From an uncultured Actinomycetes bacterium (lineage in GTDB: Bacteria; Actinomycetota; Thermoleophilia; Solirubrobacterales; Solirubrobacteraceae): a stretch of 64,000 bases of DNA. Within the stretch, counting starts at the first letter, position 1. Every line of letters starts with the position of its first letter. Position numbers and translations under genes: made by a program. This document shows positions 3,217 to 45,813 of the stretch, in pieces. Where the stretch lies: the NCBI GenBank assembly GCA_963840185.1, contig CAWIXY010000001.1, forward strand, positions 388,808 to 452,807, given 5' to 3'. Below the pieces are notes generated by a model that saw only the letters and a list, made by a program, of their open reading frames with translations, was not told where the DNA came from and did no database searches.

Positions 3217-4812
<1,596 letters not shown>

Positions 4813-24856: not shown

Positions 24857-25342
24857 ATGCTCGCGCCGCTCGTCCTGCTCTTCATCCTGGTGCCGATCCT
24901 GGAGCTGTACGTGATCATCCAGGTGGGCCAGGAGATCGGCGCGCTGTGGACGATCGCCATCCTCGTGGCCGACTCGATCCTGGGTTCGCTGCTGCTGCGC
25001 GCGCAGGGCCGCAGCGTCTGGCAGCGCTTCAACGCGGCACTCAGCGCGGGGCGCCCGCCCGCCCGTGAGGTGCTCGACGGCGTGCTCATCGTCCTCGGCG
25101 GCGCGCTGCTGCTGACGCCCGGCTTCACCACCGACGTCGTCGGCCTGCTGCTGCTGGTCCCGCCCACGCGTGCGGTGATCCGCCGTGTGCTCGTGCGGCG
25201 GCTGGCCAAGCGCATGGTCGTCGCGGTTCCCGGCGGCGGTCGCGTGCCCCCGCCCGGCGGCGGGCGGCGGCCCGGCGCTCCGGGCCCTGGCGACGACATC
25301 GAGGGCACGGCGACCGAGGTCGACCCGCGGGCGCTGCGGTGA
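24857..25342 (+). CDS. fxsA: FxsA family membrane protein
   Basis: Intact 161 aa. The sequence LVLLFILVPILELYVIIQVG...LLTPGFTTDVVGLLLLVPPTR is the FxsA signature. Confidence 0.85.
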   Translation: MLAPLVLLFILVPILELYVIIQVGQEIGALWTIAILVADSILGSLLLRAQGRSVWQRFNAALSAGRPPAREVLDGVLIVLGGALLLTPGFTTDVVGLLLLVPPTRAVIRRVLVRRLAKRMVVAVPGGGRVPPPGGGRRPGAPGPGDDIEGTATEVDPRALR

Positions 25343-26276
25343 GCGTCACCGCGGCCGACGAGGCCCCGCGCCCGCCGTCGGGCGAGGGCTTCAGCGATGC
25401 CGTGACCGTCGCCTTCGGCGACGAGCGCGCCGACCTCTACGGCGTCGTGCGCCTCGGCCTGGCCGGCGGCACGGCCAGCGGCCTGGCGATGCTGTTCCAC
25501 GGCGGCGAGCCGGTCACGGTCGTCGCCGAGGGCGCCGTCGCGGTCGACGGCCAGCCCGCGTCCTGGGACACCGTCTCGGCGGCCGGCATCGACACCTCGG
25601 TCGTCGACCCGCTGCGGACCTGGACGCTGCAGTTCGCGGGCGACGACGCGAGCCTCGACCTGTCGCTCTCCGCCGTCGGCGCGGTCGCCGAGCTTCCCCC
25701 GGACCACCCCGCGGCGCGCGCCGGCGGGATGGCCGGCTACGAGCAGCTCGTGCGCGTCGAGGGCACGGCGACCGTCGGCGCCCGGCGCCTGGACGTCCGC
25801 GCGCTGGGCCAGCGCGGCCACTCGTGGGGCGCGCCCGACTGGGACCGCATCGCCGTCGCGCGCACGCTGTCGGCCTGGCTGGGCGAGGACCTCGCGCTGT
25901 CAGCGGTCGCCATCCGCCCCGCACGCGCGTCCGACCACGCCGGCGAGCACCTGGCCGCGACACTGCTCGAGCAGCCCGAGGACGGCGACCCTGTGGCGCT
26001 CGCCGTCGACGACCCGCGCCTCTCGACGACCTACGACGGCGAGGGCCACCAGCGCCACGCGGGCCTGGAGCTGTGGATGGGACGAGGACGACCCCGTGCC
26101 CCGCCACATCGCAGGCGAGGCGCTGTGCGGCACGTCGCTGGACCTCGGCCGGCTGCGCCTGGACTGCGCGTTCTTCCGCTGGCGGATGCGCGGGCGGGAG
26201 GGCGTGGGGCGGTACGACGTGGTGCGGCGGGCGGCGTCGGCGGCGGGGGTTGAGCGGCCTAGTGCCGCGCCCTTAG
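25339..26276 (+). pseudogene. Hypothetical protein, at least 1 frame break, 3' end uncertain
   Basis: The GTG start overlaps the fxsA stop. The frame changes from f1 to f2 at about 26083 (LELWM / DEDDPVPRHIAGEALCGTSLDLGRLRLDCAFFRWRMRGREGVGRYDVV). The f2 frame then runs implausibly through the next gene. A stop at 26274-26276 needs one more shift. Confidence 0.45.
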
Positions 26277-26728
26277 TTGTCGCAGCCCAGGCGGTCCCAG
26301 AGGTACAGATCGACGCACTCTTGCGCGAGTTGCACCGCGCGTTCAGGCGAGAGGAACGGCAGCACGGTCTCCAGCGCTTGCTCCTCGGCCACGCCGTTGT
26401 CGAAGGCCTCGTCTCCGCGGAAGCCCGCGGCAATCTTCAGCGCTTCGCGGCGGTTCTCGCCCAGCGAGCCGAAGGCATTGACGAGGAACTCGCGATTGGC
26501 GATCGGCTGGCCGACCTCTAGCGAGGCGTGCCAGGCGGCGAGCATCGACAGATCGTGCTCGTCTAGATCAGCGACGGCCTTGACGTAGTGCGAAAGCAGC
26601 TCGCCGTCGGGGATCTCGTCGACCCAGGCACGGACGAGCTCGCCGAGGAGCTGACGCCGAGCCTCGCGGCCGACGGACTCGGAGATGACGCGGATCGCGT
26701 CCTTGGGTTCGATGAAGCAGAGGGCCAT
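26273..26728 (-). CDS. Hypothetical acidic helical protein (151 aa)
   Basis: ATG at 26728, in frame with track ORF 26273..27298. The product begins MALCFIEPKDAIRVISESVGREARRQLL... It has no signal peptide, and I recognise no motif. A strong hairpin separates it from the upstream gene. Confidence 0.6.
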   Translation of the reverse strand: MALCFIEPKDAIRVISESVGREARRQLLGELVRAWVDEIPDGELLSHYVKAVADLDEHDLSMLAAWHASLEVGQPIANREFLVNAFGSLGENRREALKIAAGFRGDEAFDNGVAEEQALETVLPFLSPERAVQLAQECVDLYLWDRLGCDN

Positions 26729-26824
26729 TTCCGTGCGGCGCTCCCTCGAGCTCGGAGACGACGGGACTTGACGGGCAAGGTAGGGGCCCCGTCGGACGGA
26801 GTGAAGCCCAACCGCGCGCGCGTG

Positions 26825-26858
26825 GCCGACCCCGACCGCCCACGCGGTCGGGGTCGGC
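26825..26858 (-). terminator. Perfect 15-bp GC-rich hairpin, 16 nt after the stop of the large secreted protein gene
   Basis: The sequence is gccgaccccgaccgc-ccac-gcggtcggggtcggc. There is no U tract on the minus strand, which is common in high-GC actinobacteria. Confidence 0.6.
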
Positions 26859-26874
26859 GTTTCAGGCTCGGCGC

Positions 26875-28708
26875 TCAGCGCACCCGAACACGCGCAGGGC
26901 GCGAGGTGCCCATGTCGAACGGGTAGTCGTCCGACGCGCGGGCGCGGACCCGCAGCTCGTAGGTCACCGGGCCACCGCGGCGGAACGTGTACTTCGAGGC
27001 GAACGCGCCGCCCTGCCGCGCACGAACGGTCGCGAACGTGACCCAGGCGGTCCCGGGCGTACGAGCCTGAAGCTCGAGCACCTTCCCCACTCGCGGCACC
27101 GGCCGCCCCAGGAGCCGGCCTGTGAGCCGGATGGTCTTTCCGCGACTGGCCACCCGCGGGGTCACGGACAGCCGGAGCCCGGCACGCACCTTGAGCCGAA
27201 GGGTTCGCGTCGCGGCCGGCGTCACGTCGTTGGCGTGGCTGCGATAGCGGAAGCGGAGCAGCCGGGATGAGACGTCGACGGGGAGGATCAGCGTCCAAGT
27301 TCCGTCCGGCCGCGTGCGCGCGCCGCCCTTGTCGAGCGACTCCTTGGCCCCCTTCGCGGCGGGCGTCGCCGCGAGCTCAACCCGTGCGTTGCGGATCCCC
27401 TTGCCGTTGCGATCGGTCAGCTTGCCGCGAATGACGTGGCGGACGCCGTAGCGCGACCGCAATACCGTGCCGCGGTTGCTCGCCCACCACGCAGTGAGAC
27501 GCGCCTCGTCGGTCGCGTTGATGCCGTTCGGCGCTCCGCGATCCACCGGCTGCGTTGCGCCAGGCGTGGTCGATGTCGTGGTGTTGATCACCGTCGTGGT
27601 CGAACCAGAGCCGCTCCCGCTGGAGCCCGAGCCGTCGGTCCCCTGGCCGCCCGTCAACGGGTCGGGGACGTTGTCCACGACGACGTTGCGATTCGACAGC
27701 GTCGCGGAGTTCCCCGCGGCGTCCTCAAGCAGGATCTTCAGGTTGTGCGTGCCTTCGGGCAGCTGGCGTGTGTCGAACGCAGTATGTCCCGCCCGCTGAC
27801 AGCCGGCACGGCACCGGGTGCGCGAACTCGTACGGATCGGAGTTCGCCGCGTTCACGTCCGACGCACTTCCCCGCATTCCCGTCGATTGTCCGAGACATC
27901 GCCGGCACGTTGTCGACGAGCAGCTGCACTCGATAGAGGCCCGAGCCGGTGTCGGTGGCGTTCACCGTCAGGTCTTGCTCCCCGCGAACGACCGCCTCGG
28001 TCATCAATGGCCCACTCGCGGCACCCGAGATCTGCGGATTCGTCTCGTCACGAAGCGTCAGCTTGCCTCCGTAGATGCGAAGGTACACGTCTCCCGCCAC
28101 GTTGCAGGTCCACGTCGAATCCGGCAAAGAGCAGCTAAGTGTCGCGCTCACACCGCTAGCCAACGGATTAGCAAAATTGACGCGATTACTCGCTGCCCAC
28201 GGGTTAGACGGGTTGCCCAGGGCCCCACACCAGTCACAAAGATCAGCTGCAGGCAGCCCGTAGATGTAGTCCCACGGCACCGCTATGGATGGCAAAGGAC
28301 ATGTGATTTGCCCAGGCTCGGGTATCGCCGGCGCGATACAGCTCGGCTCGAGTCAAGCTGAGGTTCGGTGGTGTAGAGAATGTGAGTGCACTGGCGCCTT
28401 CGCCCGAGACGTTGGTCGTGAATGGCACGCCGACCGCAAGCAAGACTCCTCGATCCCGCTGACATTTGCCCCGGGCCGCACTTCGCATCTCCCGGCGCAG
28501 GCCCAAGCGATCGCTGGATGTTCGACGTGAAGCCCGACGGTACGACTCCGTCAACAGCGACCACGCCCGTCCCGGTGTCGGGATTTGCGCACACTATCTG
28601 GGTGTACGTACCGTCGGCTGCCAACGCCGGCGCGGCCGGGCAAGCTACTGCGACGAGCACCAAACACATCACCAGCACTCGAAATTGACGCGAGCGTCGA
28701 GTCGTCAT
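26875..28708 (-). pseudogene. Large secreted protein (about 610 aa) with a Ser/Gly/Thr linker and a C-terminal Ig/carboxypeptidase-regulatory-like beta domain, 4 frame breaks
   Basis: A strong AAGGAGAG box lies before the ATG at 28708. The signal peptide is RVLVMCLVLVAVACPAAPALAADG. The product can be followed through 5 successive frames (track ORFs 28283-28813, 28243-28554, 27738-28295, an unlisted segment DVNAANSDPYEFAHPVPCRLSAGGTY, and 26875-27678). GC content is visibly lower than in the flanks. Confidence 0.7.
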
Positions 28709-28730
28709 CGGGTTTCTCTCCTTTTGTTGT

Positions 28731-30023
28731 TCAAGGGTTCTCGAACCCGAATTCCGAGGACGGCGTTCGGGTGGGGGGTGCAGGGCTTGCCGGCTGGGGC
28801 TTTGCGAGCGCACGGGCCGGGCGCGCGACGGCGGGCGCCGGGGCGGGCGTCGTCCGGCTCTCGACGGGATCGACGAGCGGCTCGCTGGCCGGCCGCGACG
28901 CGGCGGGCGACGGCTGCGAGGTCACCGGCGGCACGCTCGTTCGCTGTCGGACATGCGGCGTGGGTGCGCTCCGGGCGGAGCCGCGCGTCGCACGAGGGAT
29001 CGCGCGCGAAGGGCGTATGACGGAGGCGGGCCCGCGAGGCGTGCTGCGCTCGGCGACGGCGCGCGCCGGCTCGGGCAGGCGCCTCGCCTCTTCGACAGCG
29101 AGCCCGCCTCCCGCCACCGCGACGGCCGACGCGGCGATGGCTGCCGCCTTGTGGGCCGTCGCGGTCTCGACGGCCGAGTGGATGCGCAGGACGGTCGAGG
29201 CCGTGCGCTCGTGGATCGTCATCGAGACGGCCTCGTACAGGCGGGTGAGGAACCCTCCGGCGTGCTCGAGGTCGGCGGCGCCGAGCGCGAGCGTCGCCGG
29301 CGGGAAGAGCGCTCCGAGCGGGGTGCCGGTCGTGTGGAGCGCGCGCAGCGTCGCCCGGCACGACCCGCAGTTGCGCAGGTGCGGGCGAAGCTCGACGAGC
29401 TGGTCGCCGGTCGCCTCGCCGTCGACCATCGCCGAGAGGACCGGCTGCCACCGCGCGCACTCCTCCCCCGCCTCGATGCCCGCGTAGCGCTCGAGGAAGC
29501 TGCGGCGCCCCTCGGTCAGGCAGCGGTTGACCTTCGTGTACGTCCAGCCGGTGACCTCGCAGATGTCGCGGTAGCTGTGCCCCGCGGCCTTCAGCCACAG
29601 CGCGCGGACCTCCTGGGGCTTGAGGCGCTTGAGCGCCTCGGCCGAGCGCATCGTGTGCTCGAACTGCAGGGCGCGCTCCTCGGGAGACGACGTCGTGCTC
29701 GCCTCGAGGGCGTCGAGGTCCATCTCGTCCATCCCGACGAGGCGCGACCGCGACCGCCGGACGGCCATCGCCTCGTGCTTGACGACGGTGTGCAGCCACG
29801 ACCCTGCGCGCTCGGGATCGAGGCGGTGGGCGTGACGCAGGAGGATCTCCAGGGCGCGCTGGTAGGCGTCCTGGGCATCGTCGGCGCACAGCGAGTGGCG
29901 CCGGGCCGTGCGCAGGACGGCGTCGGCGTGGCGCGTGATCACGGCGATCACGAGCTCTTCGGCCTGCTGGGCGTTCAGGGGGCGGCGCGCGGCGGGTGCC
30001 GCGGCCGCGAGGGTCTCATCCAT
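28731..30023 (-). CDS. ECF sigma factor fused to a zf-HC2 anti-sigma domain, a TM segment and a Pro-rich tail (ECF52-like one-component sigma)
   Basis: Intact 430 aa with the following parts:
- Sigma region 2: DAQDAYQRALEILLRHAHRLDPERAGSWLHTVVKHEAMAVRR.
- Sigma region 4: LKPQEVRALWLKAAGHSYRDICEVTGWTYTKVNRCLTEGRRS.
- An anti-sigma zinc motif: ECARWQ...LRPHLRNCGSCRATL.
- An Ala-rich hydrophobic segment: AAAIAASAVAVAGGGLAV.
- A P/S/A-rich tail of about 130 aa. Confidence 0.85.
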   Translation of the reverse strand: MDETLAAAAPAARRPLNAQQAEELVIAVITRHADAVLRTARRHSLCADDAQDAYQRALEILLRHAHRLDPERAGSWLHTVVKHEAMAVRRSRSRLVGMDEMDLDALEASTTSSPEERALQFEHTMRSAEALKRLKPQEVRALWLKAAGHSYRDICEVTGWTYTKVNRCLTEGRRSFLERYAGIEAGEECARWQPVLSAMVDGEATGDQLVELRPHLRNCGSCRATLRALHTTGTPLGALFPPATLALGAADLEHAGGFLTRLYEAVSMTIHERTASTVLRIHSAVETATAHKAAAIAASAVAVAGGGLAVEEARRLPEPARAVAERSTPRGPASVIRPSRAIPRATRGSARSAPTPHVRQRTSVPPVTSQPSPAASRPASEPLVDPVESRTTPAPAPAVARPARALAKPQPASPAPPTRTPSSEFGFENP

Positions 30024-30292
30024 GAGGGTCTCGGCTGCGTCGGGCGGTGGGACGTCGTGTCCCCAGCCCTAGTCGGCAAGCGCGCCAGCTTCGCCCCTGC
30101 CGCGATACGCCGGATTTCCGCTCTTAGCGGTCGTTTCGTGGGTCTACTTGGACGAACGACCGAGGTTGGAGCTCACTCGAAAGGGGCAGGTGCGGGGTGG
30201 CTGGCTGACGGCCGGCAGTGCGCCGATCGAGGTCAGCACGGATCCAGCGCGCCACCGCCGCGCCCGTGGAGCGTGGGCTACGGTTGGCCCGG

Positions 30293-31465
30293 ATGCTGAT
30301 CGATCTGCACGCGCATTATCCGATGCGGGTGATCGGCGATGTCTTCCCGGACACCGCCTATCGGCAGCTGCGGCGCGCACGCGGCCGACCGACCGTTCGC
30401 GACCGGCTCCGCGCGGTCGTCCTGCGCATCGCGAGCACGTTCTTCAGCCATCGCAACGCGTTCTCGGACTACCGCATCACGGTGCCGGGCCTGCGGGAGG
30501 GCGACGTCGGCGTGGCCGTCTCCGTCCTCACCCGGCCCTTCGACGAGGTGGCCCTCGGCAAGCCGTACCCCTCGCCGCCCTCGTCGGACTACTTCGCGGG
30601 CCTCCTGGACGACTGGCAGCAGGTCGAGGACGAGGTGGCGAGCCACGACCCCGCTGTCATCCGGCTGGTCCACGACCGCCAGGAGCTCGACCGGGCGCTC
30701 GCCGACGGCGCCACCGCGCTCGTGCACGGCGTCGAGGGCGGGTTCAGCCTCGGCGACGGCGTCGAGGAGATCAAGCGCAACGTCGCCGAGCTGCGGCGTC
30801 GCGGCGTCGTGTACGTCACGCTCGCGCACCTGCTCTACCGCCACGTGGCGACGAACTGCTCGGCGCTGCCGTTCCTGAGCGACGCGCGGTACGACAAGGT
30901 GTTCCCGCAGCCGCCGGGCCTCGGCCTCACCGAGCGCGGCGTCGCCGCCCTCGGCGCGATGGTCGAGCACCGGGTCCTCCTCGACGTCTCGCACATGCGC
31001 CGGGAGGCGCTCGACCACACGTTCACGCTGCTCGACGGCGACCTCGACCCGGACTGCGAGTTCCCCGTGCTGGCCACGCACGCGGGGTACCGCTTCGGCG
31101 AGCAGCAGTACATGCTCGACAAGCCCACCATCCTGCAGATCAAGCGGCGCAAGGGCGTGGTGGGGCTGATCCTGGCCCAGCACCAGCTCAACGACGGGCT
31201 CCGTGACGAGCCGACCAGGACCTTCGACGACTCGCTGGAGGTCCTCTTTCGCCACATCGACAAGATCGCCGAGATCACCGGCAGCCACGAGTACGTGGCG
31301 ATCGGAACCGACTTCGACGGCTTCATCAAGCCCACGCTCAGCGGGCTGGAGCGCATGGCGGATCTGCCGGCGCTCGAGCGAGCGCTGCGGGACGAGTACA
31401 AGCAGGACGCCGAGCTGATGCTGTCAGCCAACGCGCTGCGCGTCCTGCACCGGGCCTGGCCCTAG
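30293..31465 (+). CDS. Membrane dipeptidase (peptidase M19) family protein
   Basis: I prefer the start at ATG 30293 (MLIDLHAHYP). The sequence has GVEGGFSLG, VVYVTLAHLLYRH, LLDVSHM and IGTDFDGF. The ORF is intact. Confidence 0.8.
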   Translation: MLIDLHAHYPMRVIGDVFPDTAYRQLRRARGRPTVRDRLRAVVLRIASTFFSHRNAFSDYRITVPGLREGDVGVAVSVLTRPFDEVALGKPYPSPPSSDYFAGLLDDWQQVEDEVASHDPAVIRLVHDRQELDRALADGATALVHGVEGGFSLGDGVEEIKRNVAELRRRGVVYVTLAHLLYRHVATNCSALPFLSDARYDKVFPQPPGLGLTERGVAALGAMVEHRVLLDVSHMRREALDHTFTLLDGDLDPDCEFPVLATHAGYRFGEQQYMLDKPTILQIKRRKGVVGLILAQHQLNDGLRDEPTRTFDDSLEVLFRHIDKIAEITGSHEYVAIGTDFDGFIKPTLSGLERMADLPALERALRDEYKQDAELMLSANALRVLHRAWP

Positions 31466-31478
31466 GCGCGGGGCGCGC

Positions 31479-33581
31479 TCACTCCCGGCGCCAGTTGGCG
31501 TTGCCGAAGATCGTCCGCATCGGCTCGCGCCACAGCGACTGCAGCGTCGGCGTGGCCGGCCCGCGCTGGTCCCTGCCGAGCGCTTGCCCCTTGCGGAAGT
31601 TCTCCAGCGTGGTGCGGCTGTACGGGGCCCAGTGGCCGAGGAAGCTCATGGGCGGGGTCTCGGACGTGACCAGCAGATGGTCGGCGGGCGTCCACGACCA
31701 CTTCGAGTCGGTCCGGTCGCGGATGTTCGAGGCGTAGCTCACCAGCGTCAGCGTGTCGGCCGGAACCCCGGCGCACTTGCCCCAGTCCGGCGCGCGCCGG
31801 TCCTCGGCGACGCGGTAGTTGGCCTGCGACCCCTCCGCGACGGCGACCAGCGGGCGAAGCCGGGGTCGCCTGGTGTTCGCGACGCGCACGTCGTGCCACT
31901 CCGACCACGTGCCGCCGCAGTGCTCGGAGTACGCCACGAACACCGGGCCGGCATCGTCCAGGCCGATCGTCACGGCTTCCCAGTCCGCCTCGTGGCGCTG
32001 CTTGAACTGGCCGCCCAGGACCGGGGCCACCCACTCGTCGTAGGGGTAGAAGTACCAGTACTGCACCAGGAACCTCGTCCTGCGCCCGTAGGGGCCGACG
32101 TCGTCGAACGGGTTCGGCGAGCCGGCGTCGAAGCGCGTCCGCCGCTCCCGCTCATCGCGTCGCTCCACGCGCACGTACACCGCCTCGTCCTGCCGAGCCT
32201 CCCCGACCGTCGCGTCCCTGCCCATCGCGCAGTCGTCGGATGCGCTCTCGCACTCGATGGTCAGGCTGTAGCACGGCTTGGGCACGATGCCCGGGCACTC
32301 GCGCGGCAGCTTGTCGACCGCCGGGGCGGCGTACACCCTCCCCTCCCAGTCCTTGATCTTGGCGGCCGCGAGGTAGGCGTCGACCTTGACGGGAGACCAC
32401 CGCTGGTCCTCGGTGAACACCAGCACCGGCGAGTACATCCGCGCGAGCTCCAGGTCGTCGGCCACCTGGCCCGGCGCCCGCGCCGGCGTGTCGGGCCTGA
32501 TCGGCTCCAGCGTCGCCTCGTCGAACTGCTCCTTGGCGCCGCCCGCGGTCGTCGCCGCGACGACCGCGAGCAGCAGGGCGAGGGCTGCCAGGGCCGAGGC
32601 GACAAGCCCGTACGCGCCGAGCCGGTCCGTGATCGACCTCCTGACGACCGGCGTTTCGAGCTGAACCGCCACACGCGTCCGCCACCCGGAGACGCTCCCC
32701 TCGGCCGCATCGCGACCGAGCACCGCGGTCGTGGCGACCTCGGCCAGCGCCACGACGATGAGGGAGACGCCCGCGACCAGGAGCAGGAGGTCCGCGGTCA
32801 GCCAGGGCACGGCGTCCGCCAGGGTGTCGTGACCGGGGAACAGCCCTGCCTCCATCCCGAGCCTGGCCAGCGCCAGGGCCAGCGCGACCGTCACGACCGC
32901 CCGCAGCCGCGAGCTCGCGTACCCGATCAGGCGCAGGACCACGGCGAAGGCCAGCAGCAGGACCGCGAGGACGAACAGCACCGTCGAGATCTGGCTGGTC
33001 TGCTCCAGGACGTCCAGCAGCGGGATGGCCGCGAACACGAGCGCCGCGGCCAGGACGACCGGCAGCAGCGCGACCTGCGCGACCTGTGCCAGTCCCTGTC
33101 GCAGCGACTGTGCCGCCGTCGCGTCCTGGTCGCGCAGTGGGTTGTCGGGGGCGTCCCACTCGCGCTCGATCAGCCCGTACCACCCGACGAGCAGGCCTGC
33201 CAGGCCGACCGCCAGCTGCAGCAGGGGCGGCGACTGCACGGTGCCCGCGGCGATCAGGACCAGGACGGCGAGCCCGAGCGGGCACGCGGCCCGGCCGAGC
33301 GCCGCGATCGGCCTGAGCGCGGTTTGCGCGCTCGCGACACCCGCCACCACGAGGACACCGACGATCCCGCCGAGCAGCAGGATGCCCCCGGCGGAGCGGA
33401 ACAGCCAGGCCACGCCGACCAGGGCGAGGATGGAGGCGGCGGTCAGCGCGATCATGCGCGGGCTGCCCGGAGGCGGCAGACGGCGCCCGATGATGGGCAG
33501 CCGCGTGAACAGGTCCGCCCCCGCGCCCTCGCCCAGCCGCGGCGGTGTGATGCGTTCCGGCTCGGCCGGTCCCCGGGTCAC
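31479..33581 (-). CDS. Large membrane protein with a C-terminal Vps62-like (DUF946-type) soluble domain
   Basis: Intact 700 aa with a GTG start. The N-terminal half has about 9-10 TM segments. The C-terminal domain contains FLVQYWYFYPYDEW...HEADWEAVTIGLD...AYSEHCGGTW, which is characteristic of the Vps62 family as I recall it. Confidence 0.7.
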   Translation of the reverse strand: MTRGPAEPERITPPRLGEGAGADLFTRLPIIGRRLPPPGSPRMIALTAASILALVGVAWLFRSAGGILLLGGIVGVLVVAGVASAQTALRPIAALGRAACPLGLAVLVLIAAGTVQSPPLLQLAVGLAGLLVGWYGLIEREWDAPDNPLRDQDATAAQSLRQGLAQVAQVALLPVVLAAALVFAAIPLLDVLEQTSQISTVLFVLAVLLLAFAVVLRLIGYASSRLRAVVTVALALALARLGMEAGLFPGHDTLADAVPWLTADLLLLVAGVSLIVVALAEVATTAVLGRDAAEGSVSGWRTRVAVQLETPVVRRSITDRLGAYGLVASALAALALLLAVVAATTAGGAKEQFDEATLEPIRPDTPARAPGQVADDLELARMYSPVLVFTEDQRWSPVKVDAYLAAAKIKDWEGRVYAAPAVDKLPRECPGIVPKPCYSLTIECESASDDCAMGRDATVGEARQDEAVYVRVERRDERERRTRFDAGSPNPFDDVGPYGRRTRFLVQYWYFYPYDEWVAPVLGGQFKQRHEADWEAVTIGLDDAGPVFVAYSEHCGGTWSEWHDVRVANTRRPRLRPLVAVAEGSQANYRVAEDRRAPDWGKCAGVPADTLTLVSYASNIRDRTDSKWSWTPADHLLVTSETPPMSFLGHWAPYSRTTLENFRKGQALGRDQRGPATPTLQSLWREPMRTIFGNANWRRE

Positions 33582-44267: not shown

Positions 44268-45813
<1,546 letters not shown>

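Follow-up and report, generated by a model that had tools for sequence, protein, structure and literature searches.

The actinobacterial groups ECF48, ECF52 and ECF53 of extracytoplasmic function (ECF) sigma factors carry a fused zinc-associated anti-sigma (ZAS) domain and membrane extensions, and their activation by regulated proteolysis has been predicted (PMC8999054). ECF48 and ECF53 have no characterised member (PMC8999054), and the only ECF52 member studied is SCO4117 of Streptomyces coelicolor, which has a carbohydrate-binding module and whose truncated sigma domain is active alone (PMC5826349). Among such fusions a mechanism, release by Prc and RseP, has been shown only for IutY (ECF243) of Pseudomonas putida (PMC8999054). 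Fused sigma/anti-sigma proteins are widespread in Actinobacteria, and no actinobacterial group has an established activation mechanism. The locus described here encodes one of these fusions and lies in a stretch of 64,000 nucleotides (the window; G000:C1:388808-452807) from an uncultured soil actinobacterium of the Solirubrobacteraceae (order Solirubrobacterales, class Thermoleophilia, a placement with which the names of close homologs agree), whose assembly (G000) comprises 4.43 Mb in 17 contigs and is rated 61.8% complete. On the minus strand of the window follow, in this order, a conserved leader, a gene for a 430-aa sigma/anti-sigma fusion, a gene for a secreted protein, a hairpin and a gene for a 151-aa protein. 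A preliminary description of this DNA had likened the fusion to ECF52-type sigma factors, for which it knew of no demonstrated activation mechanism; that statement stands for ECF52, but proteolytic release has been shown for another fusion, IutY (PMC8999054). With limited confidence, we lean towards the view that the locus is a self-contained ECF sigma switch, that the secreted protein is both its ancestral operon partner and its output, and that the partner gene is intact.

The architecture of the 430-aa protein agrees with what had been read from the sequence at first, namely ECF sigma regions 2 and 4 and an H-x3-C-x2-C anti-sigma motif within a single polypeptide. Regions 2 and 4 are the only sigma-70 regions found, as is typical of ECF (group 4) factors. 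The match of region 4 to Sigma70_r4_2 (PF08281) is by itself sub-threshold (20.8 bits, cut-off 25.7), and the NCBIfam model TIGR02937 (sigma70-ECF) spans residues 27-176 at 51 bits (cut-off 42.9). The nearest solved folds to the AlphaFold model are all ECF sigma factors: SigE, SigL and SigH of Mycobacterium tuberculosis, sigmaE of Escherichia coli, and SigW. Behind region 4, the motif is formed by H215, C219 and C222 and is joined by an upstream ligand, C189; these four putative zinc ligands (C-x25-H-x3-C-x2-C) are invariant in an alignment of 62 homologs, from which all residue invariance in the fusion was read. The anti-sigma helices in the model (residues 187-200, 206-218 and 220-232) have a predicted local distance difference test score (pLDDT) of about 80, and sequence and model together place the motif and its upstream ligand in a helical bundle, as in class I ZAS proteins.

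All genomes of the genus (24/24) and most of the order encode the fusion as a single open frame. More than 2,300 homologs were found; of the best 120, nearly all are 400-480 aa long and carry both PF04542 and PF13490, and independent contigs of the Joint Genome Institute (JGI) encode fusion proteins that are 89% and 77% identical. Merging of separate open reading frames (ORFs) can therefore be dismissed as the source of the fusion, and separate sigma and ZAS genes, which would have contradicted the preliminary description, were seen in none of the 24 genomes of the genus. A 1,206-aa frame in one relative (G007) that seemed to join the sigma factor to the secreted protein was set aside as spurious, the result of reading high-GC DNA in the wrong frame; when the proper frame is used, the sigma factor of G007 ends in AEFGFETP and a stop codon. 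Separately, a public metagenome protein of 921 aa (P0219) has Sigma70_r2 and Big_13 matches and resembles the secreted protein over 56% of its length, and is either a gene call across the sigma/secreted junction or a real fusion.

Beyond the ZAS core the protein is far less ordered. A Pfam search gave no match past residue 223, and no carbohydrate-binding module. The weak transmembrane segment noted at first corresponds to a weak, conserved hydrophobic stretch at residues 293-311 (the best 19-residue Kyte-Doolittle window of the protein), in which A295, A298, A302, A304 and G305 are invariant; an equivalent segment occurs in other families, with Kyte-Doolittle values of up to 1.9. In the AlphaFold model, residues 256-304 form one long low-confidence helix and residues 305-430 are unstructured. 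The segment is probably a single membrane span, and the topology of the protein is inferred. The Pro/Ser/Ala-rich tail, for which about 130 aa had been claimed, is present with 118 aa (P 22%, A 18%, S 12%) and is also rich in Arg (14%). It evolves at a dN/dS of 0.41 (ratio of non-synonymous to synonymous substitution rates; here and below, dS and dN/dS are Nei-Gojobori estimates for the window against the related locus L074 unless stated). The tail closes with a GEFGFE-x-P motif, whose E424 and F425 are invariant. The families compared are labelled f1 to f7 and so on, f1 being the family of this genus; the sigma C-terminus is (G)EF[GTA]P-like in f1, f2 and f4, and the EF[GTA]P motif is repeated inside the tails of f2 and f4 proteins.

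The tie between the sigma factor and the downstream secreted protein, as proposed in the preliminary description, was borne out at the level of the order. About 45 places around the sigma ortholog were scanned with profile hidden Markov models (HMMs) built from the sigma and secreted-protein alignments, together with inspection of motifs. A gene of the secreted family lies directly 3' of the sigma gene on the same strand in the window and in its relatives L074, L076 and G007 (f1), in G089, which represents another f1 genus, in all four f2 genomes (G025, G030, G034 and G038), in G040 (f4), and at six loci of G037 and G033 (f5). The pair is thus adjacent in four families. It has also been duplicated as a unit: G037, with a genome of 2.4 Mb, has four sigma/secreted cassettes (L046, L047, L050 and L051), two of them with tandem secreted genes. 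By this synteny, the secreted gene is an ancestral neighbour of the sigma fusion across the Solirubrobacterales that was co-duplicated with it. The similarly small genome of G033 (2.4 Mb) has two paralogous cassettes (L048 and L049). Some of the tandem secreted genes in the G037 and G033 cassettes encode proteins of about 960 aa, and the sigma tails in these cassettes end variously in GQAP, ELAP, SLVP or EFTPEGR.

Within the genus, by contrast, the pair is the exception, and the expectation that homologs of the secreted protein always follow such sigma factors failed: in at least 13 congeners the 151-aa gene comes immediately after the sigma gene. Most simply, the ancestor had a sigma and secreted-protein operon, and most of the genus has since lost the secreted-protein gene here. 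The fusion also ranges more widely than the secreted family, since f7 genomes have the fusion and mostly no secreted member. Congeners have dispersed paralogs of the secreted family, and no sigma gene was found within their flanks of at most 1.5 kb. Frames of 613-662 aa that follow the sigma gene in G015, G020, G021 and G004 were considered as candidates and do not belong to the secreted family by HMM. These four loci (L031 in G015, L033 in G020, L039 in G021 and L091 in G004) have a stretch of about 2-2.7 kb containing the frame 3' of the sigma gene, and their sigma C-termini differ (EFGVETP, EFEVERP and EFGFEGG).

The secreted protein itself belongs to a family whose homologs are all annotated as "hypothetical protein" and come from Solirubrobacteraceae-type sources. 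All sampled genomes of f1, f3 and f4 (11/11) contain a member of the family, as do 2/12 genomes of f7 and 0/47 of other families of the class; in this sample it is essentially confined to the order Solirubrobacterales. The proteins encoded downstream of the sigma factors have in common a signal peptide, a mature N-terminus of the form AGTYxVxxC and a C-terminal YRF...YP[FY]E.G.S domain. The AlphaFold model of the intact L074 ortholog is all-beta (pLDDT 82.9) and consists of a signal helix, an N-terminal beta-domain (about residues 34-230), an immunoglobulin (Ig)-like domain (about 240-346) with an invariant DAAGN, a disordered Gly/Ser/Thr linker (350-388), and two C-terminal beta-sandwiches (400-612), which agrees with the linker and C-terminal beta-sandwich first described. 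Foldseek searches with this model returned generic macroglobulin, Ig and S-layer chains only (template modelling scores 0.13-0.19) and no enzyme fold, and the Pfam matches, Big_13 and CarboxypepD_reg, are both sub-threshold. Since only generic folds were matched, no function is assigned to the protein.

In the given sequence, the secreted-protein gene is not the continuous frame of about 610 aa that had been described. Three-frame translation and alignment to orthologs place +1 frame changes near positions 28454, 28275, 27863 and 27780, so that the frame on the minus strand changes four times. Intact orthologs are present in three independent assemblies (L074, 612 aa; L076, 614 aa; G007, 617 aa), and that of L076 sits in the same gene order as in the window. 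Relative to the intact L074 gene (82% nucleotide identity), the window copy has exactly four single extra bases, plus in-frame gaps of 3 and 6 nt. After frame correction, it has no in-frame stop, is 86% identical to L074 at the amino-acid level, and retains 48/48 family-invariant residues and all eight cysteines of the mature protein.

The non-coding DNA around the two genes is also conserved. The leader of about 150 nt before the sigma start codon is nearly identical in the window, L074 and L076, though dS in the flanking genes is 0.3-0.5. Short palindromes such as CCGCTAAGAGCGG occur in it, as does a GGAAAT element (30114-30119), which by eye is also seen ahead of the sigma gene in most of the congener sequences, though not in every one. 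No Rfam family was matched in the leader, and a scan for a sigma-70 consensus there found none; a sub-threshold match to the Rfam DnaX element at 30361-30388 was taken as chance. A search for pairs of a 5-mer and a 4-mer separated by 15-18 nt over 31 upstream regions reached 11, against up to 10 in shuffled sequences, and did not stand out from these. At the junction of the genes, the preliminary description of a 22-nt gap with a strong ribosome-binding box was confirmed between the sigma stop and the secreted-gene start codon at 28708, and the same arrangement of a stop codon, about 20 nt, AAGGAG or AAGGAA, and ATG is found in L074, L076 and G007. The 15-bp perfect hairpin reported behind the secreted gene is present as well, and a GC-rich hairpin likewise lies 3' of the orthologs in L074, L076 and G007. 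A terminator scan based on T-runs does not call the hairpin, which is probably a terminator without a T-run.

Under the reading that we favour, the ZAS domain would keep the sigma domain of its own chain silent at the membrane, acting in cis. In response to a signal from the envelope the tail would be trimmed, after which an M50-type protease would cut the Gly-rich span within the membrane, and the freed sigma domain would transcribe its own operon from the conserved leader. The secreted-protein gene would be co-transcribed with the sigma gene, and its product of about 611 aa, presumably non-enzymatic and disulfide-containing, would be at least the main output of this sigma family. Autoregulation is suggested here by analogy. 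The assembly encodes three M50 loci and one S41 protease; to our knowledge, both protease types are near-universal, so their presence says little and shows feasibility only.

Several further points weigh against this reading. No ECF-type promoter could be assigned in the leader of the sigma gene. The hydrophobic segment is marginal, with a Kyte-Doolittle value of 1.66, and so high an Arg content is unusual for a segment outside the membrane. Cis inhibition and cleavage are carried over, as presumed properties, from relatives only. Most congeners are without the secreted gene at this locus, and the sigma factor therefore works without an adjacent copy. Finally, the four frame changes in the secreted gene are denser than a homogeneous error rate would give (P=0.04 for the gene and P=0.0014 for the 0.7-kb span), although errors in this assembly come in clusters.

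The same pairing could be read differently. It is possible, if rather unlikely, that the secreted protein is the extracellular sensing partner of the sigma factor, docking on the EF[GTA]P motif or motifs of the tail and controlling its cleavage. It would then take over, in trans, the role proposed for the carbohydrate-binding module that is fused in ECF52. The tail is without a folded domain and yet ends in an invariant motif, which the f2 and f4 tails repeat; the sigma and secreted genes duplicate as a unit; and the partner has a non-enzymatic, binding-type fold with a fast-diverging N-terminal domain, all of which would suit a sensor. Conversely, the motif is kept (as GEFGFEGP) in the 13 or more congeners that have no adjacent partner gene, and the f7 genomes mostly manage the fusion without any member of the secreted family. 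If true, this would be a two-gene, "split" version of the ECF52 design in the Solirubrobacterales, in which the outside part of the tethered fusion has shrunk to a disordered tail, the secreted protein serves as a detachable sensor, and duplication of the unit creates new signalling channels.

A second alternative does away with the membrane. The ligand spacing C-x25-H-x3-C-x2-C is that of RsrA, and the fusion might be a cytoplasmic, cis version of the SigR-RsrA thiol/zinc switch, with no membrane span and with the secreted protein merely a co-transcribed target. The marginal hydrophobicity, the Arg-rich tail and the single long, low-confidence helix in the model would all be compatible with a soluble protein. 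Against this, the hydrophobic segment and its pattern of small residues are conserved across families, in some of which the segment is more hydrophobic than here, and the constant presence of an exported partner suggests signalling at the envelope. In the literature, moreover, groups with this kind of fusion are described as bound to the membrane (PMC8999054). A soluble redox switch is therefore considered unlikely, and a membrane-tethered switch with an exported product is retained as the favoured account.

Whether that product is still made depends on how the four frame changes are understood. ORFs of at least 200 aa from the high-completeness congeners G020 and G015 were used as probes against the assembly under study; over 35,413 aligned residues, equal to 106 kb of conserved coding DNA, the reading frame changed 74 times, or 0.70 times per kb. 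Nearly half of the tested orthologous genes (46/98) are broken, including genes that are 93-98% identical to those of relatives, and this load probably explains the low completeness score of the assembly. The frame errors are clearly clustered. Of the unique frame events, 55/66 are in the "extra base" direction, as are all four changes in the secreted gene. Given this background and its direction, together with the lack of an in-frame stop, the retention of the 48 invariant residues and a dN/dS of 0.05-0.12, the gene is very likely intact in the organism, and the four extra bases would be insertion errors of the assembly.

The lower GC content that had been noted at 27.7-28.7 kb was recovered by windowed GC and by GC at third codon positions (GC3). 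The GC content of 27700-28700 is 0.632, whereas the genome averages 0.739 +/- 0.030, and a value of 0.63 or less is reached by just 0.09% of its 1-kb windows. The dip lies in third codon positions: GC3 is 0.60-0.72 over the first ~290 codons of the secreted gene versus 0.92-0.97 in neighbouring genes, and the lowest value among 151 control segments is 0.75. The deficit is also present in the intact L074 gene (0.58-0.76), is milder in L076 and G007, and is absent from other families. Codons 1-230 of the secreted gene have a dS of 1.68 (dN/dS 0.10), compared with 0.39-0.52 in the rest of the gene (dN/dS 0.05-0.12), 0.28 in the sigma core (dN/dS 0.08) and 0.31 in the 151-aa gene (dN/dS 0.03), and the comparison of L074 with L076 gives the same picture (N-terminal domain dS 1.93). 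The N-terminal domain thus looks like an imported or anciently diverged allele, and the gene is a mosaic. Of the two origins first suggested for the low GC, foreign origin is supported for the N-terminal domain of the secreted protein only and not for the operon as a whole, and relaxed constraint is rejected because dN/dS is 0.10 there, a value that indicates purifying selection on this domain.

These results bear directly on the last alternative, a genuinely frameshifted and decaying pseudogene with low GC from AT-biased decay, which would account for four frame changes in 0.7 kb (about six times the genome-wide density), for the absence of the gene from this locus in most congeners and for a GC3 well under the genome range, and which is nevertheless very improbable and was rejected, since the shifts share the direction of the dominant assembly error, further hotspots of frame breaks occur in the window, the intact L074 gene has the same low GC3, dN/dS in the gene is 0.05-0.12, the invariant residues and mature cysteines are kept with no in-frame stop, and the combination of disruptions above the error background with relaxed selection that would mark a pseudogene was not found.

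Frame breaks were also observed in other genes of this assembly. One gene of about 230 aa (G000:C1:668885-669581) has four frame changes. In the window, a gltD-like gene at about 44344-45813 (minus strand; G000:C1:433151-434620), 81% identical to its G020 and G015 orthologs, has three frame changes and falls into four segments, and a conserved gene at about 3833-4784 (minus strand; G000:C1:392640-393591), 74% identical to its G015 ortholog, has one. For a 304-aa ORF at 25339-26253 (plus strand), the alignment to orthologs stops at about residues 247-253 and the congener probe continues in another frame, so this ORF probably contains an assembly frame error near its 3' end. At roughly 0.7 frame errors per kb, with about half of the tested genes broken, the assembly carries a practical warning: claims of pseudogenes, fusions or frameshifts from this genome need to be checked against relatives.

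The region that had been marked from position 26273 as the sigma and secreted-protein operon does contain those two genes, but it also holds the separate 151-aa gene behind the hairpin. Its product, for which no Pfam or NCBIfam family was matched, shows 82-88% identity across the 21 related loci that have it by the searches made. The gene lies 77-526 nt past the sigma gene in 14 congener loci without an intervening gene, and further downstream in the others. Its conservation far exceeds that of the sigma factor (dN/dS as above). Wherever detected, it is found downstream of the sigma gene, and its product is a candidate cytoplasmic partner or regulon member. On the other side of the sigma gene lie genes for an M19 dipeptidase (30218-31465, plus strand) and for a 700-aa polytopic membrane protein (31479-33581, minus strand). 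Neither is syntenic with the sigma gene in any relative examined, and conservation of gene order ends at the sigma leader.

Table 1. Features of the sigma/anti-sigma locus, with positions in the window
Feature	Position	Strand	Basis or remark
Conserved non-coding leader/promoter region of the sigma gene	30024..30175	-	~95% identity among window, L074 and L076
430-aa sigma/anti-sigma fusion gene	28731..30023 (stop codon included)	-	Pfam, TIGR02937, conservation in congeners
Sigma region 2, residues 29-94	29742..29939	-	PF04542 Sigma70_r2, 39.1 bits, E 6.5e-10; AlphaFold pLDDT 96-97
Sigma region 4, residues 129-174	29502..29639	-	PF08281 sub-threshold; TIGR02937 span; model helices 136-180
ZAS-type anti-sigma core, residues 189-223	29355..29459	-	PF13490 zf-HC2, E 1.2e-6
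Ala/Gly-rich hydrophobic segment, probable single membrane span, residues 293-311	29091..29147	-	Kyte-Doolittle 1.66
Disordered Pro/Ala/Arg/Ser tail, residues 313-430	28734..29087	-	pLDDT <50; ends EFGFENP (28734-28754)
Ribosome-binding site AAGGAGAG of the secreted-protein gene	28716..28723	-	Read from sequence
Secreted multi-beta-sandwich protein gene, ~611 codons	26875..28708	-	Five frame segments here; intact orthologs
Signal peptide and Cys-containing N-terminal domain, low-GC3, deeply diverged (mosaic) segment	28016..28708	-	GC3, dS
15-bp perfect GC-rich hairpin, loop GTGG	26825..26858 (arms 26858-26844 / 26839-26825)	-	17 nt after the secreted-gene stop
151-aa acidic, predicted cytoplasmic protein gene	26273..26728	-	Genus-wide downstream neighbour of sigma

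Judged by its resemblance to ECF48, ECF52 and ECF53, the 430-aa protein belongs to an already known class of sigma/anti-sigma fusions. Like ECF52 and SCO4117, it is actinobacterial and combines an ECF sigma factor, a zf-HC2 domain, a probable membrane region and a Pro-rich extension in one chain (PMC5826349, PMC8999054). The zf-HC2 domain follows region 4 in the same chain, the C-terminal extension is Pro-rich and disordered in the model, and there is a single conserved, marginal candidate for a transmembrane helix. Unlike SCO4117, it has neither a carbohydrate-binding module nor another folded outside domain, and it has instead the EFGFE-x-P tail end and a secreted beta-sandwich operon partner. 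The ECF52-type assignment of the preliminary description therefore holds for the sigma, zf-HC2 and Pro-rich parts and not for the carbohydrate-binding module, and it is a resemblance by description only. Similarly, ECF48 and ECF53 proteins, compared by description, have a sigma domain, a C-terminal ZAS-like zinc finger and one or two membrane helices. With IutY it shares the joining of sigma and, probably, membrane anti-sigma functions in one polypeptide, and truncation of the extension activates IutY; however, IutY acts in proteobacterial iron-starvation cell-surface signalling with a TonB-dependent receptor, has no ZAS motif, and carries an unrelated outside domain. SigR-RsrA and other class I pairs resemble the fusion in the H-x3-C-x2-C motif and its upstream Cys ligand, in the helical nature of the anti-sigma domain and in the ECF fold of the sigma factor, whereas here a covalent linker of about six residues connects the two partners, which are probably tethered to the membrane. 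Because the protein is small, has no bulky sensor domain, ends in an invariant C-terminal motif and has a conserved, co-duplicating secreted partner, it offers a simple system for studying the release of one-chain switches, and it is this paired secreted protein and the conserved tail motif that are new relative to the fusions described so far.

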